NCBI GenBank assembly: GCA_964446625.1 | Contig: CAYUPH010000002.1 | Coordinates: 69,743-133,742 of the forward strand | DNA: 64,000 nucleotides | Source of the DNA: an uncultured Candidatus Saccharibacteria bacterium | Lineage (GTDB): Bacteria; Patescibacteriota; Minisyncoccia; Phycocordibacterales; CAIRYW01 | Direction of reading: 5' to 3' | Shown here: positions 3,625-62,127 of the stretch, piece by piece | Numbering within the stretch: the stretch's first letter is position 1 | Layout of the letters: each line of letters begins with the position of its first letter | The notes under the pieces: model-generated | Told to the model about the DNA's origin: nothing | Databases searched by the model: none | Seen by the model: the letters and a program-made list of their open reading frames with translations, nothing else | Made by a program: the position numbers and the translations under genes

Positions 3625-3647
3625 TAGCTAAGAGGTCTCTATGTTTA

Positions 3648-11460: not shown

Positions 11461-11514
11461 AGACCGTATATTACACGATATTTTTAAAAAATCAAATTCC
11501 TTCGTTTTTGGCTC

Positions 11515-32132: not shown

Positions 32133-32235
32133 ACCTTCATGGCCGACGGATGCGAGCTCCAACAAATACCACTTTGTGAGTGCGACCGTCAGCCATGAAG
32201 ACAAAGAAGCTGTTACCTATTATAGCACAGAGGAC

Positions 32236-32367: not shown

Positions 32368-34578
32368 CTATTTTAAGGTCACTCCCCTCTTTGCAAACTC
32401 TGCAACAAGAAATGGTGGCACTTCTCCCTTAGAAACAGAAAAAGGATTTATTACTTGTTTTGCCTCCGTAACCTTACCCGTAAGAAGAAGCGAGAATGTG
32501 TAGAGAACTGCCACTTCCCGAAGTTCGGGAGTTTTTTCGTACTGCTGACTCAATATTTCTTTTGCTTTAACAGCATCGTTTTGGTTAAGGTAAAAAATTG
32601 CATTTTGGAGAGAAAACTGTGGTTTGTTTGGAGAAACCTCTGCTATCTTTGAGAGCAAGTCGGAAGAAACTCTCACGAAATCTTGTCTCTTCTCCCCTGT
32701 TGTCATGAGAGTGATTTGATTTGTAAATGTCACAAAAGCAAGAAGACTTCTCGCATCCTTTGGGTGCTCAATAATTTGTTTCTTATACTCATCGACCACC
32801 GCTTCAGTAAAGTAAGCCTTCACGTCATACGGAACAGACGGCATTAAAGCGAGCTGGTTTGCGAAGCTTAGGAAATACTCCCGCCCTTCACTTCTTCCTA
32901 TTGGAAAACCATTTATCGAATTAAGGAAGTCCGACTTTACAACAGATACATCATTAGTTCTTTTTGTATTTGTGTAAGCACCTATGAGACGAACATTTTG
33001 TACGATTCCAGGAATATTTATTAAATACACAATTACAATTCCACCAAGTAACACTCCCCCAATACCAAGAGGCGGAAGAGTGTTTTTTGGATGAACTTTT
33101 TGTAACGCTTTTTCTACAAAATTTTCCTTTTCTGTAAAAGAGTTAATAATTCCAATAAATGCAAAAAACAAAAGGTAACTTGCAATGTTATCGAAGATAA
33201 ACAAGTTCTGAAATGCATAAGCTAAGATAAGTCCAAACACCAAAGCAGCAAATACCCTGTCCTCCACGTATTTCTTTCTAATCAAAACATACAAGATAAA
33301 TATATAGAGAGAAAGGTAAAGTGAAAGAGAAAGAAGTCCACCTGCAACAAGCCAGTCAAGGAAAACGTTGTGTGACCTATCAAACCAAGGCTCGTGTCTC
33401 CATAATTCATTTCTATAATAGTGTGAAAAAACATAATTAAAACCTTCTTGCCCAAAACCTAGAAGCGCCGTCTTTGGACTTGAGAAAGAAGCCTCGATTG
33501 CCATTGGCCAGATAATTGCACGTGCCTGTGTTTGTGTTTCTGAAAGAGAAATTACTGCAAAACGACCCAGGACAGGATGAGTTTTTACATACTCTGTATT
33601 TTTAAAAGCAAAGAAAAGCGAAACAACAAGTATCACTCCTCCAAGAATAATATAAGAAACCCTTTTAATGTTTTTATCGGTTTTATTAAAGAGAACAAAA
33701 ACAGATCCTGCAATAAGTCCCCCAATAAGTCCAATTACCGCTCCACGAGTTTGAGTATAAAATGTTACGAAAGCAAAGAGAAAAAGAAGTGCGGTATAAA
33801 GTATAGGCACAAAAACACGACTAAAGGTTTTATTTTTCCAAAGGAAGAGCATTAGAGCTGACACTAGGGAAAAACAGAAAGCAACAATAGCAACCGTACT
33901 GAACTCAAAGGAACTATTACTCCTTTTTATTCCAATGAAAACATATAGATACTGTACTAAAAAAAGTAAACTTCCAAAAAGAAACACTTTTGCAACTGCT
34001 TGTTCTTCTGTTTTTTTTCTCCAGAAGATCAGCAGTGTAACAAAAAAAGCAAAAAGCATTACTCCCCCTAGGTACGCAGGGTTTCCGAGTGTTGAGTCAA
34101 TTCGAGCATGAGCAGGAGTAGCTAATCCACCTACAAATTGAACAATTCCGTATAAAGCAATCGCAAGTCCTGTCGAAAGAAAAGAGACAAAAAAGTTATT
34201 TTGTTTTTCTTCTGTCCGAAGAACAAATGAAGCAAGAAAATAAAAAAGAACGACATGAGCAATTCCTACAAACCCCTCCATTCTTTCAAAATTGCTCCAA
34301 AACGCTTTAGTAACATCTACTGCAAAAATATCAGCAACAAAAACCGCTCCAAGAAACCCAAGTATTGAATAGAAAAGAAAACCTCTTTTAGGGCGGGCAG
34401 TTTTGTCTGATAGGCAAAGTAATAGATATAAGATACCTCCCAATCCTACAAGGATCCGAAAGGCAAAGTTTTTACCTGTAATAAAAGGAAAGAACATGCT
34501 GTTTGGAATCAGTATAAGCACGACTGGAACAAGATAAACCAAAAGGCTAATAGTTTTCTGAAGAATATTGTTTTTCAT
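32368..34578 (-). CDS. O-antigen ligase/polymerase-like (Wzy_C-like) polytopic membrane protein with a C-terminal TPR-like domain
   Basis: 736 aa with about 12 TM helices, a large loop carrying the GFGQEGFNYVFSHYY region, and a ~250 aa C-terminal helical-repeat soluble domain. Confidence 0.5.
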   Translation of the reverse strand: MKNNILQKTISLLVYLVPVVLILIPNSMFFPFITGKNFAFRILVGLGGILYLLLCLSDKTARPKRGFLFYSILGFLGAVFVADIFAVDVTKAFWSNFERMEGFVGIAHVVLFYFLASFVLRTEEKQNNFFVSFLSTGLAIALYGIVQFVGGLATPAHARIDSTLGNPAYLGGVMLFAFFVTLLIFWRKKTEEQAVAKVFLFGSLLFLVQYLYVFIGIKRSNSSFEFSTVAIVAFCFSLVSALMLFLWKNKTFSRVFVPILYTALLFLFAFVTFYTQTRGAVIGLIGGLIAGSVFVLFNKTDKNIKRVSYIILGGVILVVSLFFAFKNTEYVKTHPVLGRFAVISLSETQTQARAIIWPMAIEASFSSPKTALLGFGQEGFNYVFSHYYRNELWRHEPWFDRSHNVFLDWLVAGGLLSLSLYLSLYIFILYVLIRKKYVEDRVFAALVFGLILAYAFQNLFIFDNIASYLLFFAFIGIINSFTEKENFVEKALQKVHPKNTLPPLGIGGVLLGGIVIVYLINIPGIVQNVRLIGAYTNTKRTNDVSVVKSDFLNSINGFPIGRSEGREYFLSFANQLALMPSVPYDVKAYFTEAVVDEYKKQIIEHPKDARSLLAFVTFTNQITLMTTGEKRQDFVRVSSDLLSKIAEVSPNKPQFSLQNAIFYLNQNDAVKAKEILSQQYEKTPELREVAVLYTFSLLLTGKVTEAKQVINPFSVSKGEVPPFLVAEFAKRGVTLK

Positions 34579-34655
34579 ATTATTTCATATTAACACACCC
34601 CTTACACTCAATCTATATAAATAAGAGTGCTAAAATATAGCCTATACTATAATAT

Positions 34656-35807
34656 ATGTATATGCGAATAAAAAAATGGATCCTGACGTTCTTTCAAGAA
34701 CCATACTGGTGCCTTATCTTTGCTGGTATCGTAGGGCTTTTGTGCATAAAAATCCTCCCTCCTGTGCCTGTGATATCAGATTTTAAAGATTACGACGATA
34801 TTGCCCTCCACATCGTGAGCACAGGAGAATTTCGTACAATCTCAAATGAGGAGATTATCTATCCCCCACTTTACCCTTACTTTCTCTCTGCCATATACAT
34901 TGGGCTTGGTTATAACTATAATTTTGTATATTTTATTCAATTTCTTCTTTTGGGCGGTATTGCGGGAACCTTTTTTGTTATCGCAAAAAAATATTTCTCT
35001 TTTTCAACACTTCTCGCATCAACCCTTGCTCTCGCAATTTTACTTTGGCCATACACTCTTCTCTATTCTTTTGTCCTAAGCAACGAAATACTCTTTATGT
35101 TCTTTCTTTCGCTCTCTGCATTTTATTTTTTAAAATTCATCTCTGAAAAGAAAAAAACTGATGTGTTGCTAAGTGGCACCCTAGTTGCCTTCGCAGTCCT
35201 TACACGTCCAGTAGCACTTCTTCTGCCTCTTTGGGTATTTATCGGACTTTATATATTTAAAAAAATTAAAGTTATAGAATTAGAAAAAGAACACTTTAGA
35301 AAAGGTGTCTTTATCTTTCTTCTTTTTGTAGCACTACTTCTTCCTTGGACATTGTATGTCAAAGAAAAATTTAACCGATTTATCCCAGTTGCATCTAATC
35401 TTTCCGCAGTTTTCAGCAAGGCAAATAAAACTTTCGAATACGACCCGACACTGGCGAGCAAAAATACAACATCAGCTTTATTAAAAGCTAAAATTAAAAA
35501 CCTTTATCTCTTTTGGAATCCAGGGGCAAGTGGATACCATGTTGAGATACTTAAAAATAAAATTCCTCATGCTTCTTTTTTGCTTTGGTGTTATAGGATA
35601 GTTTTTGTTACATTTGTTGTACTAGGACTTTTTTCTCTTAAATTTATAAAAAAGAAAAAAGAAGTAGCTGTGCTATTTTCTATTATTTTGTATTTCTGGG
35701 CGCTTCACAGTGTTCTTTTTCCATTTCCACGATACACCTTGCCAATTATGCCGTTTGTGATTATGCTAGCCTTTTACACATTGCTACAATTCAAAAGAAA
35801 TGCCTAA
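34656..35807 (+). CDS. GT39/GT83-family membrane glycosyltransferase (ArnT / PMT-like)
   Basis: 383 aa with about 10 TM helices; shares the aromatic-rich loop architecture of the 3648-5129 gene; its end overlaps the downstream GT2. Confidence 0.5.
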   Translation: MYMRIKKWILTFFQEPYWCLIFAGIVGLLCIKILPPVPVISDFKDYDDIALHIVSTGEFRTISNEEIIYPPLYPYFLSAIYIGLGYNYNFVYFIQFLLLGGIAGTFFVIAKKYFSFSTLLASTLALAILLWPYTLLYSFVLSNEILFMFFLSLSAFYFLKFISEKKKTDVLLSGTLVAFAVLTRPVALLLPLWVFIGLYIFKKIKVIELEKEHFRKGVFIFLLFVALLLPWTLYVKEKFNRFIPVASNLSAVFSKANKTFEYDPTLASKNTTSALLKAKIKNLYLFWNPGASGYHVEILKNKIPHASFLLWCYRIVFVTFVVLGLFSLKFIKKKKEVAVLFSIILYFWALHSVLFPFPRYTLPIMPFVIMLAFYTLLQFKRNA

Positions 35808-36759
35808 AAAAATATTACTCTCGATTCCAGCTAAGAACGAAGAATCCACTTTAGAAAAAGTGATTGAAGATGCGACTTCCGAACTCAAAAAGTGTAACTT
35901 TGAGGAAATTCTAGTTCTTGTTGTAGATGATGGGTCAACCGATAACACAAAACAAATAGCAGAAAAATCAGGCGCGTATGTTATTCATCATAAAAAAAGC
36001 AAGGGTCTTGGCGTTGCTTTCTCGAGAGCGATTGAATACGCACTCGAGAAAGATGCAGATATTGTTCTTACCATCGATGCAGACAATCAATTTAGAGCAG
36101 AAGATATACCAAATATACTCTCCCCTCTCCTTAGTAAAAAAGCTGATTTCGTAACAGGATCTCGTTTTCTAAAAGATTCAAAAGTATCTGGAATCCCGTT
36201 TGCAAAAAGAATCGGCAATAGGCTCATGTCCGAACTTATTAGCTCGATTCTTAAAGAAGAATTTAAAGATGTGTCCTGTGGTTTTAGAGCCTATAATAAG
36301 GAGGCGCTTCACCATCTAAACCTATTTGGGAAGTTTACTTATACTCAAGAAGTTTTTATCAATCTTGCAGCAAAAGATTTTCGAATCTACGAAGTGCCTA
36401 TTACAGTAGAGTATTTTAAAGAAAGAACATCGCGTATTGCATCAAGCCTTCTGCGCTACGGACTTCAAACTTCTCGAATTATTTTCAGCTCAGTAATACA
36501 CTATGCGCCGATGCGCCTTTTTGGAGGATTTGCGATTATTACTTTTCTCCTTGGATTCCCCCCCGTTCTTATACTTGGTATCCGCTATGTACTTACAGAC
36601 ATGATTACTCCCTTTAAAGGAATTGCAATTTCAGGAATAGTTTTGCTTGTCGTTTCTTTCGCTTCATTTACTTCTGGTTTAGTACTTCAAATTCTAAGTC
36701 GACTACAATTAAGTATTGAAAAGAATATATATTATGCTCGCAAAAATTCTCGAAAATAA
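35800..36759 (+). CDS. polyprenyl-phosphate glycosyltransferase (GT2, DPM1/ArnC-like)
   Basis: LSIPAKNEE, VVDDGSTDNT and IDADNQ motifs with two C-terminal TM helices. Confidence 0.7.
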   Translation: MPKKILLSIPAKNEESTLEKVIEDATSELKKCNFEEILVLVVDDGSTDNTKQIAEKSGAYVIHHKKSKGLGVAFSRAIEYALEKDADIVLTIDADNQFRAEDIPNILSPLLSKKADFVTGSRFLKDSKVSGIPFAKRIGNRLMSELISSILKEEFKDVSCGFRAYNKEALHHLNLFGKFTYTQEVFINLAAKDFRIYEVPITVEYFKERTSRIASSLLRYGLQTSRIIFSSVIHYAPMRLFGGFAIITFLLGFPPVLILGIRYVLTDMITPFKGIAISGIVLLVVSFASFTSGLVLQILSRLQLSIEKNIYYARKNSRK

Positions 36760-37135
36760 ATACATAAAAAAGATTCACGATCTTCTTCGCTACGGACTAG
36801 TCGCAGCAATCAGTTACCCTGTTATATACGGAGGAACTTTCGTACTGGTTACATTAGGTCTGACTGAAAACACAGCATATCTTATTACCCTTTCTTTTGT
36901 ATATATAGGAGTATATTTTGCGTATACTAATTTTGTTTTCCGAAAAAATACCTCGAAGAAAACAATTGTTCGTTTCCTTGTCTCACTTTTACTTATTTGG
37001 GTTATTAACAACACATCATTTGCAGTTTTTCATAATCTCCTCCACTTGCATTACCTCATCGCAATCACACTCAATATCATCATATTTGGAGGAATAAAGT
37101 TTCTCATTCAAAAAATGTATGTTTTCAAAGACTAA
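36716..37135 (+). CDS. GtrA-family small membrane protein
   Basis: 139 aa with four TM helices and an LLRYGLVAAISYPV GtrA-like N-terminal motif. Confidence 0.55.
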   Translation: MKRIYIMLAKILENKYIKKIHDLLRYGLVAAISYPVIYGGTFVLVTLGLTENTAYLITLSFVYIGVYFAYTNFVFRKNTSKKTIVRFLVSLLLIWVINNTSFAVFHNLLHLHYLIAITLNIIIFGGIKFLIQKMYVFKD

Positions 37136-37988
37136 AGAAAAAGAAAAATTAATTCTCACTTTTGACCTAGAGATATGGCATGAGTCAAAATGGATGGAAC
37201 CTTTTATTTCTGAAGATTTAAAAAAAGACACTCTTACCGAATCCGTCCTTCCTCTTTTGCACATTCTAAAGGAAACAAATTCGCACGCGACCTTTTTTAC
37301 TACAAATGCTGTTCTCGACAATTACCCTGAAATAATTAAAAAGATTTTTTCAGAAGATCATGAAGTAGGATCTCATAGCACAACTCATATTCGTCTAGAC
37401 GAGCAGCAAGCTGAAGTATTTGAGGGAAACCTCCAGCTTCAAAAAGAAAAGATAGAAAAACTCATTGGTAAAAATGTTTCAGGATTTCGAGCACCTCACT
37501 TTTCTCTTAATCAGAAAACTAAATGGCTTATCCCTCTTTTAACACGCCTAGGTTTTCTTTACGACTCAAGTATTTTCCCTATAAAGACTCCTGAGTATGG
37601 CATTTCAAAAGCTCCTACTTTTCCTTATAAAATTAGTAGCGAGACGCTTCTCGAGGAAAAAGGAAGTTCTTTTTTGGAGTTTCCCCAATCAACAGTTAAA
37701 ATTTTTGGTCTACAAATCCCAGTTGCAGGCGGTGTTTATTTTAGAATTCTACCTCTTTTTATTTTTAAATTTCTTTTAAACATGGCGATAAAGCAAGGAA
37801 ACACTCCTATGGTATACTTTCACCCACATGAGCTTTACTCGGAAACACCTCGCATCAAGGGTCCTATACTTAAAACCTTTATCAAATATTTCGGAACAAA
37901 AAGATCCTTGCTAAAGTTCAATAAACTAATAAAAAATTACACTTGTATTTCGGTAGAAGAGTACATATCAAAAGTAAAAAATGTTTGA
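37119..37988 (+). CDS. polysaccharide deacetylase-like protein (divergent NodB/DUF3473 type)
   Basis: LILTFDLEIWHE replaces the TFDDG motif; His-rich HSTTH and FHPHE motifs. Confidence 0.4.
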   Translation: MFSKTKEKEKLILTFDLEIWHESKWMEPFISEDLKKDTLTESVLPLLHILKETNSHATFFTTNAVLDNYPEIIKKIFSEDHEVGSHSTTHIRLDEQQAEVFEGNLQLQKEKIEKLIGKNVSGFRAPHFSLNQKTKWLIPLLTRLGFLYDSSIFPIKTPEYGISKAPTFPYKISSETLLEEKGSSFLEFPQSTVKIFGLQIPVAGGVYFRILPLFIFKFLLNMAIKQGNTPMVYFHPHELYSETPRIKGPILKTFIKYFGTKRSLLKFNKLIKNYTCISVEEYISKVKNV

Positions 37989-39216
37989 AAAAATTATAAA
38001 AAAAGCAGAAGCGTATCTTCAAACAGATGTGCGGTACATCCTCTCTGGAGGTTTCTGGCTAACTATGGGTCAAGTAATCTCGTCAGGAAGTTCTTTTCTT
38101 CTTTCAATCGCATTTGCCAACCTTCTTTCAAAAGAAGTATACGGAGAGTATAAGTATATAATCTCGCTTTTTGGGCTCCTTGGCGCTCTCTCACTTTCTG
38201 GGCTTGGAACTTCTATTACCGGATCGAGCGCTCGAGGATACGACGGCGTACTGCGAAAATCTTTTTTCCTTTGTCTCCGTTGGGGATTTTTAATTACAGG
38301 AGTTTCAACTCTAGCTTCCCTCTATTACTTTTTAAATCAAAACTTCACTCTTGGTTACTCACTTCTTGTGGTGGGAGTTATTAGTCCTTTTCTTTATAGC
38401 TCACTTCTCTATAAATCTTTTCTAAATGGAAAAAAAGAATTTCGAGCACTTACTCTCTATGGAATTATTTACAATGTAGTTCCAGTTCTTTGTATCATTG
38501 GAACTATTTTGCTAACCGAAAAAACAGTTTTTATCGTAACTGCCTACCTACTATCAAATACTATAATTTCACTTATTTTGTACAAACACGTTATTAAGAA
38601 GTATGCCCCGAACAATAAAATCGATGAGAAAAGTATTTCCTTTGGAAAACATCTGAGTCTCGTCAATACCTTAGACACTATTGCAACCTATATCGATAAA
38701 GTACTTCTTTTCCATTTTGATGGGGGAATTAATCTTGCTATTTATTCCTTTGCTGTCGCAGTACCCGAGCAAATACGAAGCTTACTCAAAATGATTCCAA
38801 CCTTAGCAATTCCAAAGCTTTCAGAAAAAACTCACGAACAGATCCAAAAAACAATTTACAAAAAGATTTTCAAAGTGATGCTAATCACGATTCCTATTGC
38901 GGTTCTCTACTACTTCATTGCTCCTTATATATACAAAATCGTATTCCCTGAGTACATAGACTCAATTATTTATTCGCAAGTGTTCATGCTAATTATCTTA
39001 GTAGAAGGAGGTCTGCCGGGGGCAGTATTTAAAGCGCAAATGGCAGTAAAAGAGTCTTACCTCTTAAATATTTTAGGAAACACTGCTCGCATTGCACTCA
39101 TTATTCCTCTTGTGTGGAGTTACGGAATTTGGGGACTCATTGTAGCGCGAATCTTAGGACGCTACCTTACTTTTGCCATTTCCCTTGCTCTTTTGGGAAA
39201 AATGAAGGAAAACTAA
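37981..39216 (+). CDS. Wzx-like oligosaccharide flippase (MOP superfamily polysaccharide biosynthesis protein)
   Basis: 411 aa with 12 TM helices in a Wzx/MATE-like arrangement. Confidence 0.55.
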   Translation: MFEKIIKKAEAYLQTDVRYILSGGFWLTMGQVISSGSSFLLSIAFANLLSKEVYGEYKYIISLFGLLGALSLSGLGTSITGSSARGYDGVLRKSFFLCLRWGFLITGVSTLASLYYFLNQNFTLGYSLLVVGVISPFLYSSLLYKSFLNGKKEFRALTLYGIIYNVVPVLCIIGTILLTEKTVFIVTAYLLSNTIISLILYKHVIKKYAPNNKIDEKSISFGKHLSLVNTLDTIATYIDKVLLFHFDGGINLAIYSFAVAVPEQIRSLLKMIPTLAIPKLSEKTHEQIQKTIYKKIFKVMLITIPIAVLYYFIAPYIYKIVFPEYIDSIIYSQVFMLIILVEGGLPGAVFKAQMAVKESYLLNILGNTARIALIIPLVWSYGIWGLIVARILGRYLTFAISLALLGKMKEN

Positions 39217-39224
39217 AGAGTACC

Positions 39225-39962: not shown

Positions 39963-40036
39963 ATCATTATATTAATACACTATGCCTCGGAAACATAATG
40001 GCTAAAAACCACCCTTTCTGCTACAATAATCTCGCA

Positions 40037-43064: not shown

Positions 43065-43072
43065 AAGTGAAA

Positions 43073-44146: not shown

Positions 44147-44238
44147 AAATATAAGTTATTTACTTTGGGATTATTATATACCCCGCCTATAGTGAAAGCA
44201 ATTTAGCGTGATATATTGACATATAATACTTTTTATTT

Positions 44239-44985
44239 CTATATTTTTGCCGCAGCCTTTGCTTTAAATTCAGGAAAGGTTGTATCCCTTCCTACAAAAT
44301 ACCTCGGGATTTCAAAATTATTTTGTAAATTATTATACACTCCGCTTTTTACTGTAACCGCTGCACTGTATCCTACTTCTTTTGCCTTTTCGACGCACAT
44401 TTGGTTAAACCTTCCCTTTGGGTATGCAAGGAGAGTTCCTGGCTTCCCTGTAATTTTTTCTATAAATTCCTTTGATTCCTCTAGCTCATAGTGAAGATCT
44501 TCTTTAGAAAGAACACTCAAATCAGGATGCGAAACTGTGTGGGGCATAAGCTCTATTGTTTCTCTTTCTTCCTTCGCAATATGCAAAATTTGCTCCATAT
44601 CCATAACAGAAAGTGTCACACCATCACTAGTTGTCATCTCACTTCCAATTTTTCCTGTTGGAATAAAAAAAGTCGCTTTCATGCCATACTTGCGAAGTAA
44701 CGGTAAAACAGTTGTAAAGTTATCGGTATAACCATCATCAAAAGTAAGCACGATTTCGTTTTCACTTTTTTTTGCTAGTAGATCAGAAATTGCTTCACTT
44801 AAAAATACAGTCTTTAATCCTTTTTGCTTTATATACTTCAGTTGACGCTCGAATTTTTGAGGAGAAACAGTAAAAAAAGCATTACTCTCTCCCACTGAGT
44901 GGTACATCAAAATACTCACACCCTCCTTCGATGGAAATAGAAGACGAAAAGAAAAATAGCAATACTTTAAAAACTTCTTTAACAT
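44239..44985 (-). CDS. polysaccharide deacetylase (CE4, NodB domain)
   Basis: LTFDDGYTDN, PHTVSHPDL and KATFF motifs. Confidence 0.7.
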   Translation of the reverse strand: MLKKFLKYCYFSFRLLFPSKEGVSILMYHSVGESNAFFTVSPQKFERQLKYIKQKGLKTVFLSEAISDLLAKKSENEIVLTFDDGYTDNFTTVLPLLRKYGMKATFFIPTGKIGSEMTTSDGVTLSVMDMEQILHIAKEERETIELMPHTVSHPDLSVLSKEDLHYELEESKEFIEKITGKPGTLLAYPKGRFNQMCVEKAKEVGYSAAVTVKSGVYNNLQNNFEIPRYFVGRDTTFPEFKAKAAAKI

Positions 44986-46007
44986 ACAATTTTTTGGACT
45001 AGGAGTGACAAACTGTGATCCCTAACAACAATTTCTCGGAGTCTCTTACCAATCTGTTTTTTTTCCGCTTCTCCCAGAGAACTTAGGTAACTAATTTTTT
45101 CTTTTAAGTCTGTAGTGTCGTTCTCTTTTACCAAAAGGCGGTCTCTTAAATCTGTGGGAAAAATTTCTTCGAAAGACTTGTTTTGCACAAGAACCAGACC
45201 TTCGGTGGCCATCATTTCAAGTATCACTTTATCAAAGGATCCACTTGGAGTCATATTTATTAGGATTTCATGTGAATTAAATATATCTTTTGTCTGACAA
45301 TTAGGAACACTCCCTTTAAATACCACTTTTCCTATCTTTTCAAAAGACGAGCTGTCTTTCCTGATTTTGTTGTAATAAGAAACTTCTGAACTTTTATTTA
45401 CCTTATCACCAAAAAGATTGAGTGTGTATTCTGGAGGTAGTGCACATACAGCTTCCAAAATATTCTCAACTTTTTTTATTGATGAAATCCTGCCAAGGTA
45501 AAGAAGAGAGTGCGGTGTGCGCTTAATTTCTTCTCTGCAAAAGAAGTTTGTATCTATTCCAGCAGGCATAAGCTCTGTTTTTTTAAAAGAAGCAGTAAAA
45601 GAAAACGCTGAGGTACAATACACTTTGTCTGCCAAAAAAACTGCGACTCTGGTTTTAAACGAACCATGCGGATGATTTCTCCAAAGTAAAATCTTCTTTC
45701 CTAAAACCTTCCACAAAAGACCTGCGAGAAGGACATACTCTTCGTTCATATGCACAAAGACTGTGTCGTACTCTTTGCGAAGTGTCCAAATATATTTAAA
45801 AAGATTTTGTATGTATTTTATCTTTGAGACGCCCCTCTCCTTCCCAAGAGAATAAATAGGCGCCCCCCCTGTTTCCACTTCACCTTTTTCCAAACAAATG
45901 ACCGAAAGTTTCTCTACTTTCTTTTGAAACTCTTCTATCCACCTTACAAAAAAGCCGAGTACATCATCATTTTTATCTACTTTTTGTGTAAGAATTAGAA
46001 GTTTCAT
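44979..46007 (-). CDS. GT4-like glycosyltransferase
   Basis: C-terminal SFDKVILEMMATEGLVLV (E-x7-E-like) and an N-terminal GT-B half. Confidence 0.5.
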   Translation of the reverse strand: MKLLILTQKVDKNDDVLGFFVRWIEEFQKKVEKLSVICLEKGEVETGGAPIYSLGKERGVSKIKYIQNLFKYIWTLRKEYDTVFVHMNEEYVLLAGLLWKVLGKKILLWRNHPHGSFKTRVAVFLADKVYCTSAFSFTASFKKTELMPAGIDTNFFCREEIKRTPHSLLYLGRISSIKKVENILEAVCALPPEYTLNLFGDKVNKSSEVSYYNKIRKDSSSFEKIGKVVFKGSVPNCQTKDIFNSHEILINMTPSGSFDKVILEMMATEGLVLVQNKSFEEIFPTDLRDRLLVKENDTTDLKEKISYLSSLGEAEKKQIGKRLREIVVRDHSLSLLVQKIVC

Positions 46008-46009
46008 TT

Positions 46010-46849
46010 TTAAAGTCCGTATACACCTTTTAGTAGTTCACTGTCTTTTCCGCTAGATTTTAATAGCTCAACATTTTTTTCCTCCATGGCTCGAAGCATT
46101 TGAAGACCTTTTAAATCCTCTACTTTATTTTCGTAAAACTCACGAAGTGCTGCGAAATCCTTTATGAAGCACTCTCCCCCTGCCCCTCTTCCTGATTTGT
46201 GTAGTGCATTTGCGTAAGTAGGCCCATTGTCAGGGTCTGCTCCTATTGCTTCTTTAATTTTCTCATAGTCTACCCCTTCTGCCTGGCTTAGATCATAAAA
46301 AATATTTGCCATAAGCACTCTCGCATACCCAATACAATTGCGGGCATATTTTATAAGTTCCGCTTCAGTGGAATCGCACACAAGCGAGAACTGCGATTTA
46401 GGTAGAACACTAAGAACTTCTTCAGAGACTCTTGTATAGGCATCCGTTTTTTGAGGAATACCAATTATATTCCTCGTAGGGTGTGACGCATCATACTTTG
46501 CTGTTGCTACAGACAGAAATTCGGGATTATGAACAACAAAGATTTCAGAAAAATCGGCGGCAATCTCTTTTGTTTTTCCTGGAAGTAGTGTTGATTTTAT
46601 AACCGCAACCTTGCCTTTTCCCACCAAAGCAAGAGCGCTGCGAACAATACTATCGCTAAAACCTTCTTTTGTTGTAGGAGTTGGCACTGCTACAAAAACA
46701 ATATCACACGAAGAAATTTTTTCTTTGTTTTGAATATAAGGCTCTTCGAGAGAGTAGCGTACGACTTCAAAGCCCCGCTCTTCAAAGTCGTCCGCGTAGT
46801 TTTTTCCTATCCATCCTTGCCCAATAAAACCGATTTTTTTATTTTGCAT
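46010..46849 (-). CDS. UDP-glucose/GDP-mannose dehydrogenase family protein, short form lacking the C-terminal UDP-binding domain
   Basis: IGFIGQGWIG and VAVPTPT NAD-domain motifs and the catalytic-Cys motif GGECFIKD, but only 279 aa. Confidence 0.5.
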   Translation of the reverse strand: MQNKKIGFIGQGWIGKNYADDFEERGFEVVRYSLEEPYIQNKEKISSCDIVFVAVPTPTTKEGFSDSIVRSALALVGKGKVAVIKSTLLPGKTKEIAADFSEIFVVHNPEFLSVATAKYDASHPTRNIIGIPQKTDAYTRVSEEVLSVLPKSQFSLVCDSTEAELIKYARNCIGYARVLMANIFYDLSQAEGVDYEKIKEAIGADPDNGPTYANALHKSGRGAGGECFIKDFAALREFYENKVEDLKGLQMLRAMEEKNVELLKSSGKDSELLKGVYGL

Positions 46850-46850
46850 A

Positions 46851-47327
46851 CTATCTTTTTTTTACACTCTTTTGGCAAATATAACAAACATTTTGCCTTT
46901 CAATAAGTCCATCTATCATCTTTGTGGTAGAAATTTCAGGAGTATATTTTGGCTCAATAACCTTCCCTCCCCATGTCTTCATAAGTTCAATTACTTTTTT
47001 TCGTTTCTCTGCTTGCACTCCTGTTTTCCAATCGTCCCCATGAACAAAATAATCCGGGCGAAGTTTCAAAAGGTTCTTTGTAAAATCTAAGGTTGTCTGT
47101 TTCATTACTTTCTCTACCCCTTTTATTTGCTCGATCACTTTTTTTCTCATTTGGTAGCTATGAACAGGAATTCTCTTATAACTCGCGATTGCCTCGTCAG
47201 TAAGGAGCCCTACAACAACATCTCCTAGTTTCTTTCCTTTTAGGATAATATTCACGTGCCCATGGTGGATTATATCTACCGCCATAGGGACATATACTAC
47301 TTTTTTCTTTTTATTTTCTTTTTTCAT
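46851..47327 (-). CDS. cytidylyltransferase (TagD-like, HxGH nucleotidyltransferase)
   Basis: PMAVDIIHHGHVNII (HxGH) and a later HGDDW motif; size and fold resemble glycerol-3-phosphate cytidylyltransferase. Confidence 0.6.
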   Translation of the reverse strand: MKKENKKKKVVYVPMAVDIIHHGHVNIILKGKKLGDVVVGLLTDEAIASYKRIPVHSYQMRKKVIEQIKGVEKVMKQTTLDFTKNLLKLRPDYFVHGDDWKTGVQAEKRKKVIELMKTWGGKVIEPKYTPEISTTKMIDGLIERQNVCYICQKSVKKR

Positions 47328-48241
47328 TACGCGTATCTTTTTTCTGAAAGCTGTTTATAAAGACTGTCCCATTCTTTACTATACTCTTCAAACTCTTGCT
47401 CTTCCTTCTCACTCCATACATGCTCTGCATTTTGTTTTGCTTTTACAGTCTTCCCTTTTACAACAAGAAATTCTTTTTCCGAAAGAAGTGGCGAGAGCCC
47501 AAACTCATTTGCAATCTTTTTATAATATTCATAATTTTGATCAGCGTGGCGCAAAATAAATACAAACCTCTTATCTTCTGGCAATTCTTCCATTTGCTTC
47601 CAAATCTCCTTGTTTACCATACTCCCCCACCATGCGATTTTCCCTATCCGGGTAAGTCCTGACCATGTTGAATAAAAGTCTCCGTTTGGTACAAGACGAC
47701 CAAAAAGGTAAAGCCAATACCACTTTTGAGGAAAAGTCGGTTGAAAACCGAGAGCTAAATCATTTCGTCCTCGAACATATTTGTGCTCAAAAAAGCCTTT
47801 ATTGTAGATTGACTGCACAGTAAACCGAGGCTCATTGATTGCAAAAATTATCTTTTCTGGAGAAAGTATATTATAAAGCTCGAGTATGCCATGTGAGAAA
47901 AAAGGGCTTATAACGAGCGACACATCAGCTTTCTTCCAATCTTCCACGATCCCTTTTTTAATTATGCGAATTATACCCGCGGTATCAATAGGAAGCTTGT
48001 TATAGCAAATATACCTATAAAAACACTCAGGCTCAAAGTTTCTTTCTGTAATTCCTGTAGCGTTTTTGTGAGCATTGAAAACATCTCCTAGCCACCTAGT
48101 TCCTGATCGAGCAGAAAGTGTGCATAAAATAAGCTTCTTTCCTTTCTTTTTCCCTTCTTCAAATAAAGCGTCAATAGTATCAAAATCCTCATCCGACATA
48201 CCCCCTCGGTCCCAAGAAATAAGCAGTTTTCCTATCTTCAT
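47327..48241 (-). CDS. sulfotransferase-family protein
   Basis: LILCTLSARSGTRWL resembles the 5'-PSB PAPS-binding loop (xxSGTtW); about 300 aa alpha/beta protein. Confidence 0.4.
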   Translation of the reverse strand: MKIGKLLISWDRGGMSDEDFDTIDALFEEGKKKGKKLILCTLSARSGTRWLGDVFNAHKNATGITERNFEPECFYRYICYNKLPIDTAGIIRIIKKGIVEDWKKADVSLVISPFFSHGILELYNILSPEKIIFAINEPRFTVQSIYNKGFFEHKYVRGRNDLALGFQPTFPQKWYWLYLFGRLVPNGDFYSTWSGLTRIGKIAWWGSMVNKEIWKQMEELPEDKRFVFILRHADQNYEYYKKIANEFGLSPLLSEKEFLVVKGKTVKAKQNAEHVWSEKEEQEFEEYSKEWDSLYKQLSEKRYA

Positions 48242-48303
48242 GTTCTTTTGATTACCTGACTAATTTGACCATTATACACCAAATTTTGCGTCTCAAAAGG
48301 AGA

Positions 48304-48969
48304 CTATTTCTTCTCCAAAATGAAAAAATGGTGGAATTTATTGAGGGGTGGATTGAACTCTCGGAGAATTTTAAAATGTTCCTTAAGTGAATTTCTTACT
48401 TTCTTTTTAGAAGTAGTAAAATAGTCGATCTCAAAATAATGCTGACCTGAATCTTCAAATCCACCAAACCGAACCGGAAACCGAAGAGACAAATCGATAT
48501 ACTTTCTTTTAAGAAGTGTTTGAATAAAAGGAAACTTTAGCACAATATTAAGACCTGTGTGTTTTTCAGGAAGAGAGATTACAACGTATTTTCTTGAAAT
48601 TCTATGAAAATCACCGAGCACCTTTTCGAAATCACCATATGGAATATGCTCAAGTATTTGACACGCAACGATACAGTCAAAAGAGTCTTTTTCAAAAGGA
48701 AGTGACCTCACGTCTGAAACAACGTCAGGTAAAACATTTTTATCAAAATCACATGTTGTTACTTTGTAGCCAAGCGCAGTAAGTTCTCGAGAGAGAATTT
48801 TGCTCCCCGGACCAATTTCAAGAACTGTTTCTACTTCTGGAAGCGAAATAACCGAGTCAATTTGAAAAAAGTAAGAAATAAATCTTTCAAAGGTGTTGTA
48901 CCTCTTCTTTTTGTAGTGTCCTTCTTTTACTTGTACTTTATTTTTTTCTTCCAACATAAAAATATCCAA
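48304..48969 (-). CDS. class I SAM-dependent methyltransferase
   Basis: VLEIGPGSK motif I and DCIVACQILEH. Confidence 0.65.
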   Translation of the reverse strand: MDIFMLEEKNKVQVKEGHYKKKRYNTFERFISYFFQIDSVISLPEVETVLEIGPGSKILSRELTALGYKVTTCDFDKNVLPDVVSDVRSLPFEKDSFDCIVACQILEHIPYGDFEKVLGDFHRISRKYVVISLPEKHTGLNIVLKFPFIQTLLKRKYIDLSLRFPVRFGGFEDSGQHYFEIDYFTTSKKKVRNSLKEHFKILREFNPPLNKFHHFFILEKK

Positions 48970-49591
48970 TAGGAAGCGGATAATTTGTTTTTATTTTCTT
49001 TGGTATTAGCATATCAAAAAAGAGTGCGAAAGTATTTACAACTAGACGAATAGGCCAAAACAAAAGAAGCGTGTGAAGGGAGTATGCAAAAACAGAAAAT
49101 CTTTCACCGATTCTTTCCCCCAAAACAATCTCAAAACTTTGTTTTTCAAAAAGACTCTCTATCCCCTCCTTAGTATGCCTTTGGTAATCGTGTGGCTCTG
49201 GCATTTCATTGACTGCAAAGGGATTAGACACAAGAAGGTGTCCATCTTTTTGTAAGACACGAGCCACTTCCTTAAGCACAAAGCCTGGATCTTCTGCTAT
49301 ATAAAGATTATGAAAAAGAAAAACCGTATCGAAGGATTCGTTTTCATAAGGAAACACTTTGTTAAAATCAAGAAAAACATCTTTGTCATCTGATCCAAAA
49401 TCTGTCTTTATATATGTGATGTCCTCTGGAAGAAAACCGATATAAGATGGGGCTTTTCCTGCACCTATGTCGAGAACTTTCCCTTTTATATACTTGCCGT
49501 GTTTTAAAAGACGAAACTGAAACAAGATTCGGTAAAGCGTCTTCCCTTTGATTGTCTGCCGGAGGAAACTAAATAAATTTTTCATGTGCAA
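48938..49591 (-). CDS. class I SAM-dependent methyltransferase
   Basis: VLDIGAGKA motif I and FDTVFLFHNL; overlaps the downstream methyltransferase by 32 nt. Confidence 0.65.
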   Translation of the reverse strand: MHMKNLFSFLRQTIKGKTLYRILFQFRLLKHGKYIKGKVLDIGAGKAPSYIGFLPEDITYIKTDFGSDDKDVFLDFNKVFPYENESFDTVFLFHNLYIAEDPGFVLKEVARVLQKDGHLLVSNPFAVNEMPEPHDYQRHTKEGIESLFEKQSFEIVLGERIGERFSVFAYSLHTLLLFWPIRLVVNTFALFFDMLIPKKIKTNYPLPIGYFYVGRKK

Positions 49592-50654
49592 TCTTTATCC
49601 AATTATCTTTGTACGCTTGGAGCGTTTCCTCTTCAGAAAGAAGTTTCTTGCTTAAATCTTTATTTGCTTCACAAATTTTTTTTCGAAACTCATTGTCTTC
49701 TATAATTCGTATCATCTCAGCTAGCAACTCTTTTTCGTCTCCAATTTTTATTACAACAGCATTTTCATTATGAATAAGTAACTCATTTGCCGCACCAACA
49801 TTCGTCATGATAACAGGAAGGCCCGAAAGCGCTGCTTCTATGGGTGCAAGTCCATACCCCTCACTATATGAAGTTAGAAGAAAACAATCTCCCTTTTCAA
49901 AAAAGCTCAAAGTATCATCTATGTTTCCCAAAAAATGCACCGAGTCTGATATTTGTAGTTCCGCAGTCTTTTCTTTTAAAGAAGCTTCCTCAGGTCCTGA
50001 ACCTCCAATGAGAAGCTGACAATTTTGAAATACTTTTTTCAGCCGGTGAAATGCTCTGAGCTGCATTTCAATATTTTTTACTTTTACCAACCGGCTTAAA
50101 GTTATAAAAGTAAAACTGGTTCTATTTACATCTCTTTCCTTGTACTGAAATTTTGTACAATCTGTAAAAATAGGTACCACTGATATTTTACTTCCTTCAA
50201 GTTTAAAAGAAGATACTAAAAAGTTTTTGAGTCGAAAACTGACCGTGCGTAGTCCAGTTGCTTTTTTTAAGACAAAGCCAGCAAGAAGCTTTCTTATTCC
50301 AGTATATTTTTCAAAACCATGAACTTGAATTTCAAGTGGTGTTTTAGTGATAATACTTAAAAAAACTGCCACACTTCCTACAAAATACGTATCTCTTGTT
50401 GAGATTAAACTGTAGCCCACCCTTTTCATAAGAGCGAAACCCATGAAAAAGAACTTTAAAAGACTTACTATCTTTGATCTGGAACTAAAACTTATTACTC
50501 GTACATTTTCCGATATGTAGGTCTCTCCTTTTTTTACTCCAGGAACAAGAATATCAATTTTTTCTACAAGATTTCCATATGAAATAAATCTCTTCTGCAC
50601 CGCAGATCCTGCTACCAAAATATTCTTGTCGAGTCCAAAAAAGAGGATTTTCAT
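49569..50654 (-). CDS. GT4 glycosyltransferase
   Basis: EGYGLAPIEAALSGLPVIMTNVG motif. Confidence 0.7.
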   Translation of the reverse strand: MKILFFGLDKNILVAGSAVQKRFISYGNLVEKIDILVPGVKKGETYISENVRVISFSSRSKIVSLLKFFFMGFALMKRVGYSLISTRDTYFVGSVAVFLSIITKTPLEIQVHGFEKYTGIRKLLAGFVLKKATGLRTVSFRLKNFLVSSFKLEGSKISVVPIFTDCTKFQYKERDVNRTSFTFITLSRLVKVKNIEMQLRAFHRLKKVFQNCQLLIGGSGPEEASLKEKTAELQISDSVHFLGNIDDTLSFFEKGDCFLLTSYSEGYGLAPIEAALSGLPVIMTNVGAANELLIHNENAVVIKIGDEKELLAEMIRIIEDNEFRKKICEANKDLSKKLLSEEETLQAYKDNWIKIAHEKFI

Positions 50655-51745
50655 ATAAGGCCAATTAACTTATTTACTGTATTATCAAAACTGTATTTTT
50701 TCGCTTCTTCCCTAGCAGCAAGACTAACCCTCTTTACCCCCTCTGGATTTTTATAGACTTCAATTATCTTTTTTTTAAGAGCGTCTGTATCTCCAGGAGA
50801 AAAAAGAAATCCTGTAACTCCGTCGCAAATAATTTCCTCAAGGCTTCCTGTCCTCGTCGCCACAACTACAGCCCTAAGAGCCATTGCCTCTACGGCTTGA
50901 AAAGAAAAACTTTCAAATCCGGAATTTAAAACAAAAACACTCGACTTTTTTATGAGCCCGAAAAGCTCTTCTCGGGGAAGAGATTTTTGAGTTTTTATAC
51001 ATTGGGAAAGACCAGTTTCTTTGATTGCATTTAAAATGTTCTGCTCCTCGGGCCCGCTTCCCACTATACAAAGCGTCGCCTCAGGAATAACCTCCTTTAT
51101 ATCCTTAAAAGCGTATACAAGCTCTTTAAACCCCTTCCAAGGCACCATTCTCCCTGCTGTTAGTATGGCAAATCCGTCTTTTTGTGCCTCTAACGCTACA
51201 CCCTCTTTATATACAAATTTTTCAATTCCATTGTAAACTACCCGAAGTTTAGAATCCAAAACCCCCCACTTTAAAACCACACTCTTGAAGTACTCACTCG
51301 GCACAATGACTGTGTCTGCATGTGTAGCTACAAACTTTTGAATGGAACGCAAAAAACCAAGAACTCCTTTAGTTTTTTTATCTTGAAACTCATCTATACT
51401 TTCTTTTACCTCAAACCTCTGTACACCTTGCTCCCATGCGTAGTCCCCAGGAACCCGAAGTATCATTTTTTTTCGAAGTATTTTTGAAACAATCAGAGCT
51501 GGCAGACCAACACTTACTGTATCTTGCACAAAAAAAGTATTAGCTTTTCGTCCGTGCCAAAAAAGCTTTGCTCCATATACAAAGTGACGCACTATTTTTG
51601 GAAAAGACAGAACCTCTCCAAATGATTCAACTATTACATTTACACCTCGCTCAGGTAGCGCGTCTGCTAAGAGTTTTGCATATGTAGCCGGTCCACCAAT
51701 TTGTGGAGGAAAAATTCCAGTTGCAATGAGTACAGTTTTTGCCAT
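50651..51745 (-). CDS. GT4 glycosyltransferase
   Basis: ESFSFQAVEAMALRAVVVATRTG motif. Confidence 0.7.
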   Translation of the reverse strand: MAKTVLIATGIFPPQIGGPATYAKLLADALPERGVNVIVESFGEVLSFPKIVRHFVYGAKLFWHGRKANTFFVQDTVSVGLPALIVSKILRKKMILRVPGDYAWEQGVQRFEVKESIDEFQDKKTKGVLGFLRSIQKFVATHADTVIVPSEYFKSVVLKWGVLDSKLRVVYNGIEKFVYKEGVALEAQKDGFAILTAGRMVPWKGFKELVYAFKDIKEVIPEATLCIVGSGPEEQNILNAIKETGLSQCIKTQKSLPREELFGLIKKSSVFVLNSGFESFSFQAVEAMALRAVVVATRTGSLEEIICDGVTGFLFSPGDTDALKKKIIEVYKNPEGVKRVSLAAREEAKKYSFDNTVNKLIGLI

Positions 51746-51746
51746 T

Positions 51747-53231: not shown

Positions 53232-53260
53232 TTGACATAGTATTAACAATGTGATATGGT
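53232..53260 (+). promoter_or_regulatory. sigma70-like promoter TTGACA-17 nt-TATGGT
   Basis: Consensus -35 TTGACA at 53232-53237, 17-nt spacer and a -10-like TATGGT, at the end of a 215-bp AT-rich intergenic tract upstream of the orphan ORF. Confidence 0.4.
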
Positions 53261-53288
53261 TCTGAACGGCAATTCCGCCTCTTTAAAA

Positions 53289-58773: not shown

Positions 58774-58781
58774 TTTAAATT

Positions 58782-62051: not shown

Positions 62052-62127
62052 TTCATATAAGTATAAAGTAAAAAGACTAAAGTATAAAGGAGAGGAAATA
62101 AAAAAGTAGGGATGTTTCCCTACTATA

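Follow-up and report, generated by a model that had tools for sequence, protein, structure and literature searches.

What do a cytidylyltransferase and a sulfotransferase-like protein do side by side in a bacterial envelope glycan locus? The question is raised by positions 32368-51745 of a 64,000-nucleotide stretch of contig CAYUPH010000002.1 from an uncultured, Paceibacteria-like member of the Patescibacteria (this whole stretch is called the window below), where a cytidylyltransferase with an HxGH motif is encoded directly after a protein with a predicted sulfotransferase fold, amid glycosyltransferases, deacetylases and methyltransferases. An initial annotation, made from the sequence alone, took the two proteins as signs of a teichoic-acid-like, sulfated and methylated surface polymer. 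Here, we compare the locus with characterized enzymes and with related loci from other genomes. We will show that the cytidylyltransferase points to phosphonate chemistry, and that in sister lineages both genes belong to a phosphonate cassette. The reading that we lean towards, as somewhat probable, is that of an envelope glycan locus with the tailoring half of a phosphonate decoration pathway, the C-P-forming genes being absent from the window.

The open reading frames (ORFs) were listed for 28-58 kb, and every ORF of 32368-51745 was scanned against Pfam, with key ORFs compared also with NCBIfam. Over the whole window, ca 40 ORFs were scanned with Pfam, and ca 20 housekeeping ORFs (e.g. ribosomal proteins, translation factors, and pentose-phosphate and glycolytic enzymes) were judged by eye from their translations. 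Functions were assigned by homology and synteny, and the genome data are those of the 64-kb window. DNA around homologues was fetched and the loci were compared with the window proteins by tblastn, which gave 12 distinct loci (L005, L008/L012, L010/L021, L011, L014, L015, L016, L017, L020, L024, L026 and L027) and an ambiguous one (L013).

The three genes at the centre of the argument are the following:

47327-48241, minus strand: sulfotransferase-fold protein, 304 aa (fold match; motif SARSGTRW)
46851-47327, minus strand: stand-alone Fom1-type cytidylyltransferase domain, 158 aa (HxGH motif IIHHGH; ISTT motif)
46010-46849, minus strand: short UGDH-family dehydrogenase, 279 aa (PF03721 and PF00984; NAD-binding and central domains)

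The best match of the cytidylyltransferase in the PDB is the cytidylyltransferase (CyTase) domain of Fom1 (5X3D; 165 bits, E 8.7e-48, 53% identity over 132 residues). Ethanolamine-phosphate cytidylyltransferase follows at 65 bits and TagD (1COZ) at 50 bits (E 2.3e-12), and the TagD equivalog model TIGR01518 gives 56 bits, with a cut-off of 165. The TagD-like assignment of the initial annotation is thus not borne out, and the HxGH enzyme is best assigned as a Fom1-type 2-hydroxyethylphosphonate (HEP) cytidylyltransferase, not as TagD-like specifically. Both the HxGH and the ISTT motif are intact in it. With the CyTase domain of a fusion with phosphoenolpyruvate (PEP) mutase in the related locus L011 it shares 61% identity, and beyond the boundary of that domain the similarity ends. 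The start codon overlaps the stop codon of the upstream sulfotransferase-fold gene (TAATG), and the next junction is equally tight (TAG-TATG).

Fom1 is known to cytidylylate HEP (Rice et al. 2019, PMC6697681). According to the same work, 23.6% of PEP mutases are fused to this cytidylyltransferase Pfam domain, and in two-thirds of the cases the nucleotidyltransferase nearest to ppm is no more than five genes away. For stand-alone Fom1-type cytidylyltransferases elsewhere, the PEP mutase gene was found immediately adjacent in both cases examined, which makes the orphan enzyme of the window unusual.

The related loci provide the context that the window lacks. Their homologues of the sulfotransferase-fold protein are 51-71% identical to the window protein in all 12 cases, and each shares one operon with a CyTase-PEP mutase fusion (12/12). 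A thiamine pyrophosphate-dependent decarboxylase (Ppd) and an iron-type alcohol dehydrogenase (Fe-ADH) are present wherever the contig reaches that far. In 11 of the 12 loci the Fe-ADH gene is directly followed by the homologue, and in L010/L021 the contig ends at this point. The PEP mutases of these loci carry the diagnostic EDKxxxxxNS motif. Judged by its gene content, the cassette is the Fom1/Fom2/FomC set, predicted to make HEP and its cytidine monophosphate (CMP) conjugate (for HEP and CMP-HEP formation of this type, see Rice et al. 2019, PMC6697681). The distribution is wide: relatives of the L011 fusion (11454-12317) are CyTase-PEP mutase fusions with 67-82% identity from Patescibacteria and from DPANN archaea (Woesearchaeota, Nanoarchaeota), and one such fusion belongs to Minisyncoccus archaeiphilus, which is in culture and could serve for experiments.

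In about half of the cassette loci there is an additional protein of 382-394 aa, which Pfam barely recognises. It is a clear homologue of methylphosphonate synthase (MPnS; 6B9S, E 3.3e-57) and of HEP dioxygenase (6B9R, E 2.1e-42), and its gene comes after the CyTase-PEP mutase fusion (12339-13523 in L005; also in L010, L012, L020 and L021). The residues that we take to be MPnS markers, His148, Gln152, Phe162, Ile184 and His190, all appear conserved in the alignment of the MPnS-like proteins. The homology suggests methylphosphonate synthesis in Patescibacteria; our literature search found no paper that mentions it.

In the window, L011, L014 and L027, the short UGDH stands in place of the MPnS-like gene. 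As recognised initially, this enzyme is C-terminally short and keeps the catalytic Cys motif (GGECFIKD, i.e. GGxCFxKD), which is confirmed by Pfam, by the translation and by the PDB alignment to UGDH 3VTF. What is missing is the C-terminal UDP-sugar-binding domain, and the score with TIGR03026 is 120 bits, compared to a cut-off of 189.8. The short length is conserved in L011 (72% identity), L014 and L027, and synteny in these same loci shows that a GT4-like glycosyltransferase gene (GT4b) adjoins the short UGDH wherever the latter is present. We also considered that the short UGDH replaces a glycerol-3-phosphate dehydrogenase in a TagD pathway. This option was rejected, as L011, L014 and L027 have the gene together with a full HEP cassette, and its neighbour is GT4b in every case.

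Other genes of the window locus recur in the related loci as well, namely GT4b, a CE4 deacetylase, two S-adenosylmethionine (SAM) methyltransferases, GT4a and a divergent TagF-like gene with an NTP-transferase, and furthermore CE4+DUF3473, GtrA, GT2 and Wzx genes. The closest arrangement is that of L011, where the order is MurC-GT4-GT4-Ppd-ADH-sulfotransferase-fold-CyTase/PEP mutase-short UGDH-GT4-CE4-GT4, followed by the divergent part TagF...NTP-transferase-Wzx-CE4. The window has the same order, except that the two methyltransferases occupy the position of Ppd and ADH. As a separate observation, the phosphonate cassette of L016 is adjoined by a small P-loop kinase-like ORF (4899-5519; weak AAA_17/18/33 matches), which could be a nucleotide 3'-kinase analogue of adenosine 5'-phosphosulfate (APS) kinase or of Cj1415.

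In the window itself, tblastn over all 64 kb gave no match to PEP mutase, Ppd or Fe-ADH, and the EDKxxxxxNS motif is absent from all six frames. Without PEP mutase and Ppd, the window is not a phosphonate biosynthetic cluster. Among the loci compared, the loss of the C-P-forming genes is seen only here, and the comparison indicates that the PEP-mutase domain, Ppd and the alcohol dehydrogenase were lost from the window lineage, which kept the cytidylyltransferase domain as a stand-alone protein. The remaining tailoring genes look functional, because the invariant residues are kept (the sulfotransferase-fold protein carries every one that is invariant in its family), 13 contigs from several samples encode the sulfotransferase-fold protein in identical form (a 99% variant exists), and the gene junctions are tight.

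The sulfotransferase-fold protein requires a closer description, since the initial annotation had called it a sulfotransferase, with a motif like the loop of enzymes using 3'-phosphoadenosine 5'-phosphosulfate (PAPS). The profile check failed: at a threshold as loose as E <= 5, none of the sulfotransferase families of Pfam matched the window protein, nor did any such model of NCBIfam. A database search returned 86 homologues, all without a name or called 'hypothetical', and the named organisms are almost all Patescibacteria metagenome-assembled genomes; PF13469 is found in only the most distant of the 86. PDB sequence searches with the window protein, with a 45-member profile and with the outlier P0086 gave no sulfotransferase, the matches being chance ones to SspH2/IpaH and chlorite dismutase, and an hhalign comparison of the family profile with a canonical Sulfotransfer_3 neighbour aligned only the 5'-phosphosulfate-binding (5'-PSB) region, with a probability of 2.8%. 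The family is small, with 554 matches at E <= 1e-3, and 130 at <= 1e-30, in a profile search of 1.84 billion cluster representatives.

The fold, on the other hand, was upheld. An AlphaFold model built from the family alignment has a pLDDT of 91.4 and a pTM of 0.90, and its 38 best Foldseek matches in the PDB are all sulfotransferases, including TPST1/2, heparan sulfate 3-OST, schistosome sulfotransferases and mycobacterial Stf1/Stf9; the superposition is modest (best E 1.1e-5, TM ca 0.47). According to this model, the protein has the sulfotransferase fold.

The motifs were mapped with a family alignment that includes canonical-looking outliers, and with a TPST1 alignment of the canonical Sulfotransfer_3 neighbour. 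The 5'-PSB loop ARSGTR is well preserved among 45 members, with Arg44 in 45, Ser45 in 42, Gly46 in 44 and Thr47 in 41 of them. A Glu (Glu65) is conserved 21 residues after the loop Arg44, presumably the same spacing as that of R78 and E99 in TPST2. In the 3'-phosphate-binding (3'-PB) motif, which canonically reads R-D/N-P-x5-S (e.g. 'RDGRASVHS' in TPST1), Ser143 is invariant, and where the Arg would stand the window protein has Asn135. This position is N/A/S/T/G in 43 of the 45 close members, with Arg only in two canonical-looking outliers. Since the wider family mostly has Arg here (117 of 136 aligned representatives), the loss of the ancestral Arg for binding the 3'-phosphate of PAPS is derived in the window clade. 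It does not go with the phosphonate context, though: members in L009 and L025 lack the Arg without having phosphonate genes, and the loss was therefore rejected as a specific sign of a CMP-linked donor. A few family members (P0364, P0404, P0448 and P0471) are fused, to a GT4 domain (twice), a pyruvate-kinase-type barrel and a radical-SAM domain; these fusions would indicate only that the family works on glycans and in small-molecule tailoring.

The remaining genes of the locus, together with the neighbours that are discussed below, are given here:

32368-34578, minus strand: Wzy_C / O-antigen-ligase-like polytopic membrane protein, 736 aa (PF04932 4.2e-15, 56.3 bits)
34656-35807, plus strand: GT-C glycosyltransferase (PMT_2 / ArnT-like), outer face (PF13231 26.5 bits, cut-off 26.1; marginal)
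35800-36759, plus strand: GT2, GtrB-like polyprenyl-phosphate sugar synthase (PF00535 2.5e-26; conserved in L005 and L012)
36716-37135, plus strand: GtrA-family small membrane protein (PF04138 26.3 bits, marginal; conserved in L005, L010 and L012)
37119-37988, plus strand: CE4 + DUF3473 polysaccharide deacetylase (PF11959 1.1e-28, PF01522 5.7e-19)
37981-39216, plus strand: Wzx-type flippase (PF01943 4.9e-20, 72.5 bits; 64% identity to the L011 homologue)
39225-39962, minus strand: 2H (LigT-like) phosphoesterase (PF02834 24.7 bits; motifs HSSL and HITI in the translation)
39998-40762, plus strand: LicC/PntC-like NTP-transferase (cytidylyltransferase) (PF00483, DUF6564)
40750-41922, plus strand: TagB/F-family CDP-alcohol phosphotransferase (PF04464 Glyphos_transf 7.2e-50, 170.4 bits, cut-off 22.1)
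41919-43064, minus strand: GT4a glycosyltransferase (PF00534 1e-39)
43073-44146, minus strand: RfbB-like NDP-hexose 4,6-dehydratase (PF16363 2.6e-70; TIGR01181 306 bits, under its cut-off of 365)
44239-44985, minus strand: CE4 polysaccharide deacetylase (PF01522 8.8e-29)
44979-46007, minus strand: GT4b, GT4-like glycosyltransferase (PF13524 and PF00534 at ca 1e-8)
48304-48969, minus strand: SAM methyltransferase MT1 (PF13489 and PF08241 at ca 1e-10; homologues with 60-66% identity in L005, L010 and L012)
48938-49591, minus strand: SAM methyltransferase MT2 (PF08241 2.9e-8; homologues with 56-61% identity in L005, L010 and L012)
49569-50654, minus strand: GT4c glycosyltransferase (PF00534 4.7e-37)
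50651-51745, minus strand: GT4d glycosyltransferase (PF00534 2.7e-36)
51747-53039, minus strand: MurC-type Mur ligase (Mur_ligase N, M and C domains; heads the long minus-strand string and marks the boundary)
56953-58773, minus strand: ABC exporter (ABC_membrane and ABC_tran)
58782-59975, minus strand: further GT4 beyond murC (PF00534 6.8e-41)

With 19 of the 20 ORFs in 32368-51745 matching their expected Pfam families, the gene content listed in the initial annotation is real, the two methyltransferases included. At least seven other Patescibacteria loci have the same genes in syntenic arrangement, so that the block is not a chance grouping and can be taken, as proposed, as one envelope glycan locus of a reduced-genome bacterium. 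The locus type is in fact common in Paceibacteria-like genomes; what stands of its supposed unusualness is that it is experimentally uncharacterised. Some details have to be amended. The GT4 genes are all present, but only one of them lies between the TagF-like and RfbB genes, and a further, GT4-like one is found between the CE4 and short UGDH genes. In the protein described as O-antigen-ligase-like with TPR repeats, the Wzy_C domain is confirmed, while the C-terminal TPR signal is weak (TPR_19 below its cut-off). This protein is a candidate polymerase or ligase, and its homologues flank related loci. The LigT Pfam score, like those of PMT_2 and GtrA, is only just over the cut-off. The LigT-like phosphoesterase gave no tblastn match in the related loci and, because it was not found there, appears specific to the window lineage. 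NCBIfam equivalog models for RfbB, TarF, UGDH and TagD are all under cut-off on the locus proteins, and TIGR03006 gives 189 bits on the CE4 + DUF3473 deacetylase, under its cut-off of 276.

The locus is placed between murB (31062-32204) and murC. On the murB side it is closed by a strong terminator-like hairpin after the Wzy_C gene (32275-32247, minus strand). The minus-strand string runs from murC (53039) down to 41919, with two GT4 genes, the two methyltransferases, the sulfotransferase-fold protein, the HxGH cytidylyltransferase, the 279-aa UGDH-family protein, the GT4-like gene, CE4, the RfbB-like dehydratase and a last GT4. Also in L011, murC heads the glycan gene string, and the order MurC-GT4d-GT4c is common to both. 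The gene is probably co-transcribed with the glycan genes; no strong terminator-like site was found inside 41919-51999, which is the part of the string that was scanned. A promoter scan gave fewer sites than in shuffled sequence and was not used, so that the hairpin after the Wzy_C gene is the one informative signal, and Rfam and tRNA scans detected nothing in the locus region. The initial annotation let the locus continue past murC with a GT4 and an ABC exporter. These genes are present at 56953-59975, but contiguity does not hold, since two ORFs without a family, a 98-aa ORF (outside the scan), RadC and a second Mur ligase intervene. They are possibly associated with the locus, though not contiguous with it.

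The locus contains a second cytidylyltransferase, and each of the two is encoded beside a candidate transferase that is not a glycosyltransferase. The best PDB match of the NTP-transferase at 39998-40762 is LicC, over its full length (1JYK, 6.2e-16), followed by the fusion with the phosphonate-specific PntC of T. denticola (6PD1, 1.5e-11), so that it is best described as a LicC/PntC-like cytidylyltransferase, which would activate a small phospho(no) head group. Its pairing with the TagF-like enzyme is conserved in at least seven related loci. The latter enzyme is not a TarF equivalog (85.8 bits, cut-off 550), and TarB and TarL are also far under. With this transferase and two cytidylyltransferases present, head-group chemistry of the CDP/CMP-alcohol type, which was part of the initial proposal, is retained.

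The following outline of glycan assembly is drawn from the functions of the families. The five GT4 enzymes would build a repeat unit on a lipid carrier, for which the RfbB-like dehydratase would supply a 6-deoxy or 4-keto sugar. The two CE4 enzymes would de-N-acetylate and the two SAM methyltransferases methylate it. Wzx would then flip the unit, the Wzy_C/TPR protein would polymerise or ligate it, and the trio of GT2, GtrA and GT-C would add a sugar on the outer face. Head groups would come from two modules, one consisting of the LicC/PntC-like cytidylyltransferase and the TagF-like transferase, and the other of the Fom1-type cytidylyltransferase, the translationally coupled sulfotransferase-fold protein and the adjacent short UGDH-like dehydrogenase. 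By comparison, this second module corresponds in sister lineages to the tailoring part of the phosphonate cassette, where the CyTase-PEP mutase, Ppd and Fe-ADH would make HEP, to be followed by the MPnS-like cupin or the short UGDH. In the window, the cytidylyltransferase may still make a CMP-linked small phosphonate or phosphate analogue, from a substrate that is salvaged or made elsewhere in the genome, and the sulfotransferase-fold protein would work in the same branch. The predicted product is an O-methylated, partly de-N-acetylated glycan with phospho(no)ester head groups.

Which reaction, then, could the sulfotransferase-fold protein catalyse? We consider it a serious possibility, somewhat short of an even chance, that it passes the CMP-activated head group on to the hydroxyl of a sugar, with release of CMP, in mechanistic parallel to sulfuryl transfer from PAPS. 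Several observations argue for this. The gene is fixed after the HEP-forming reductase, and was retained with the cytidylyltransferase after the loss of C-P formation. The loci with an MPnS-like gene probably yield methylphosphonate, a compound without any hydroxyl that could be sulfated. Around L014 and L024 no TagF-like gene was detected, which leaves the sulfotransferase-like protein as the sole non-glycosyltransferase candidate there. The 3'-phosphate ligand is lost, though this, as noted above, is not specific. Finally, PAPS parallels a CMP-phosphonate anhydride, and there is a precedent in CDP-phosphoramidate 3'-phosphate, the C. jejuni donor of O-methyl phosphoramidate (MeOPN), which resembles PAPS (PMC11800397). 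That the protein is a genuine PAPS- or APS-dependent sulfotransferase is a lesser but still real possibility, and other roles make up the remainder. More doubtful is the wider proposal that the Arg-less clade is the missing phosphonoglycan transferase, acting on CMP-HEP or CMP-methylphosphonate, with the window lineage using a phosphonate salvaged from host or environment, or a phosphate analogue.

A number of points weigh against phosphonate tailoring and against this role of the sulfotransferase-fold protein. The 64-kb window holds no phosphonate source. With the TagF-like enzyme, the locus has another obvious candidate for transferring CMP-phosphonates, and we know of no sulfotransferase-fold enzyme that uses a CMP-linked donor. 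The retained 5'-PSB loop, the putative catalytic Glu and the 3'-PB Ser fit a true PAPS enzyme, and single scans of 45 members gave weak matches to PF00685 (Sulfotransfer_1) in 11 and to PF13469 (Sulfotransfer_3) in six. The Arg-less members in L009 (8295-10900) and L025 (8287-10894), with 47-49% identity, have no phosphonate genes around them; the order there is canonical Sulfotransfer_3, methyltransferase, sulfotransferase-like gene, and L025 has a PAPS_reduct-family gene nearby. (An APH-type kinase gene is also found near the latter, and a B12-binding radical-SAM gene in L009.) Regarding glycan assembly, Pfam found no initiating phosphoglycosyl transferase (Bac_transf, MraY/WecA-type) among the 20 locus ORFs; it may be encoded elsewhere.

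The locus could also be explained otherwise. In the reading closest to the initial annotation, TagD would provide CDP-glycerol, the TagF-like enzyme would add glycerol-phosphate, and a PAPS sulfotransferase and the methyltransferases would complete a sulfated, methylated teichoic-acid-like polymer. The strong TagF-family match, the membership of the HxGH enzyme in the TagD superfamily, the sulfotransferase fold with its conserved loop, Glu65 and Ser143, the weak Pfam matches in relatives and the canonical sulfotransferases adjoining distant clade members all speak for it. We nevertheless consider it unlikely, given the much better match of the cytidylyltransferase to Fom1 than to TagD, the missing profile match of the window protein and the Arg lost in its clade. 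Genes for PAPS synthesis were recognised neither among the Pfam-scanned ORFs of the window nor among the ca 20 judged by eye, those gene tables of cassette-type loci in which Pfam families are listed show none either, and the place of the gene after a phosphonoacetaldehyde-reductase-like gene, wherever upstream DNA is readable, is left unexplained. The failed profile check, together with no recognised PAPS gene in the window, is the outcome that the initial annotation had itself named as speaking against it. The sulfated polymer is thus unsupported, although the fold leaves some probability for sulfation.

Another option is that a phosphonoglycan is still made, with PEP mutase (Ppm), Ppd and alcohol dehydrogenase encoded elsewhere in the genome and the locus only activating and attaching the product. 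The intact and tightly coupled tailoring genes fit with this, stand-alone Fom1-type cytidylyltransferases do exist in other genomes, and the search covered only 64 kb of the source contig, which measures at least 354 kb. However, PEP mutase is immediately adjacent in both of the stand-alone cases examined, no contig of the source contig's length (354,304 nt) carries any of the 120 best relatives of the L011 PEP mutase (67% identity or more; weak evidence), the nearest nucleotidyltransferases mostly lie close to ppm (the two-thirds quoted above from PMC6697681), and all 12 related loci keep the genes together, which makes this scenario quite improbable. Least probable, and in our view very unlikely, is that the cytidylyltransferase, the sulfotransferase-like protein and the short UGDH are functionless passengers in an ordinary methylated-glycan locus. 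The absence of Ppm, Ppd and the alcohol dehydrogenase from the window, in this lineage only, would agree with such a relic. Yet the ORFs are of full length, the clade-invariant residues and the HxGH and ISTT motifs are all kept, the overlapping stop and start codons are preserved, and the protein is the same on the 13 contigs mentioned above. Small Patescibacteria genomes rarely keep dead genes, which also counts against it.

Returning to phosphonate tailoring as the preferred reading, it is useful to compare the locus with known systems. To the HEP-CMP branch of fosfomycin biosynthesis in Streptomyces (5X3D) it is related by the 53% identity and the shared motifs of the cytidylyltransferase, and in the sister loci a fusion of this domain with PEP mutase occurs alongside Ppd and Fe-ADH, the same set as Fom1, Fom2 and FomC. 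In the window, by contrast, the domain stands alone, with no PEP mutase, Ppd or alcohol dehydrogenase in the 64 kb. The later fosfomycin steps involve the radical-SAM methylase Fom3, the hydrolase FomD and the epoxidase Fom4, gene types that are absent from the Pfam scans of the locus, and the context is glycan assembly rather than a diffusible antibiotic. With the Pnt pathways (Rice et al. 2019, PMC6697681), the locus shares a LicC/PntC-like cytidylyltransferase beside glycan genes and the handing of a CMP-activated phosphonate to a cell-surface polymer, and the related loci carry a true Ppm. It differs in that there is no 2-aminoethylphosphonate (AEP) transaminase, the branch being that of HEP or methylphosphonate instead of AEP, in that the window is without Ppm, and in the recurrent sulfotransferase-fold partner, which appears in no phosphonate paper found in our literature search.

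The MeOPN capsule system of C. jejuni (Cj1415-Cj1422) also places a cytidine-activated phosphorus head group on a surface polysaccharide and has two adjacent methyltransferase genes in its cluster, but the Pfam scans of the locus show no glutamine-kinase-, amidotransferase- or APS-kinase-like gene. Compared to the TagD/TagF (TarD/TarF) system, there is likewise a Glyphos_transf enzyme (170 bits) paired with a cytidylyltransferase for a CDP/CMP-linked head group; here, however, the adjacent cytidylyltransferase is of the LicC/PntC type and the HxGH enzyme of the Fom1 type, no TagO, TagA or TagGH is found in the locus, and export looks Wzx/Wzy-like. For a Wzx/Wzy-dependent pathway, both the flippase (72.5 bits) and the Wzy/ligase-type protein (56.3 bits) are present. 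The trio at 34656-37135 resembles GtrABC and CsbB-GtcA-YfhO in combining GT2, GtrA and GT-C, except that the GT-C is PMT_2-like with a marginal score. The PAPS sulfotransferases (TPST1/2, 3-OST, Stf0/Stf1/Stf9 and the CurM sulfotransferase) have in common with the window protein the fold, the xRSGTx loop, the acidic residue at +21 and the 3'-PB Ser. They are set apart from it by the lack of a profile match, the TM of ca 0.47, the change of the 3'-PB Arg to Asn/Ala/Ser/Thr, and a genomic context of phosphonate rather than PAPS supply.

Outside the locus, the window holds a second envelope-glycosylation module (1639-6175) with three genes:

1639-2883, plus strand: chitin-synthase-like GT2
3648-5129, minus strand: PMT_2 / GT22-like GT-C
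5111-6175, minus strand: GT2-GtrA fusion

Peptidoglycan genes are interleaved with the glycan locus, namely murB, murC and the second Mur ligase (55616-56944, weakly MurD-like). A 716-aa protein (60105-62255, minus strand) has the signatures of a TrwB/TraG/VirD4 type IV secretion coupling protein and of a HerA-like ATPase. Four ORFs of 196-249 aa have no Pfam match (53256-53900, plus strand; 55026-55616, 182-823 and 18027-18776, minus strand). The sole RNA gene that the Rfam and tRNA scans detected in the window is a tRNA-Thr (TGT) at 6313-6388 on the minus strand.

In summary, the locus is neither a TagD/TagF system nor a validated sulfation locus, but a glycan locus of the Wzx/Wzy type, in our preferred reading with the tailoring and attachment half of phosphonate decoration. 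It illustrates two traps in annotation: an HxGH cytidylyltransferase beside a TagF-like gene does not by itself mean teichoic acid, and a P-loop-like motif does not by itself mean sulfation. The tailoring steps of phosphonates have been called enigmatic (Rice et al. 2019, PMC6697681), and how HEP and methylphosphonate are attached to polysaccharides is still an open question in the field. Our literature search found no named phosphonate transferase, no paper linking sulfotransferase-like genes to PEP mutase clusters or to Patescibacteria, and none linking phosphonates to Patescibacteria. The sulfotransferase-fold family, which follows the reductase gene in 11 loci and persists, together with the cytidylyltransferase, past the loss of the C-P genes, offers a concrete and testable candidate for the transferase. 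If this is true, a sulfotransferase scaffold has been re-used for phosphorus chemistry. More generally, the related loci and the distribution of the fusion indicate that decoration of the surface with phosphonates, methylphosphonate probably among them, is widespread among ultrasmall Patescibacteria and DPANN archaea, which would bear on how these organisms attach to their hosts and, in the case of methylphosphonate, on the sources of methane in freshwater and groundwater.

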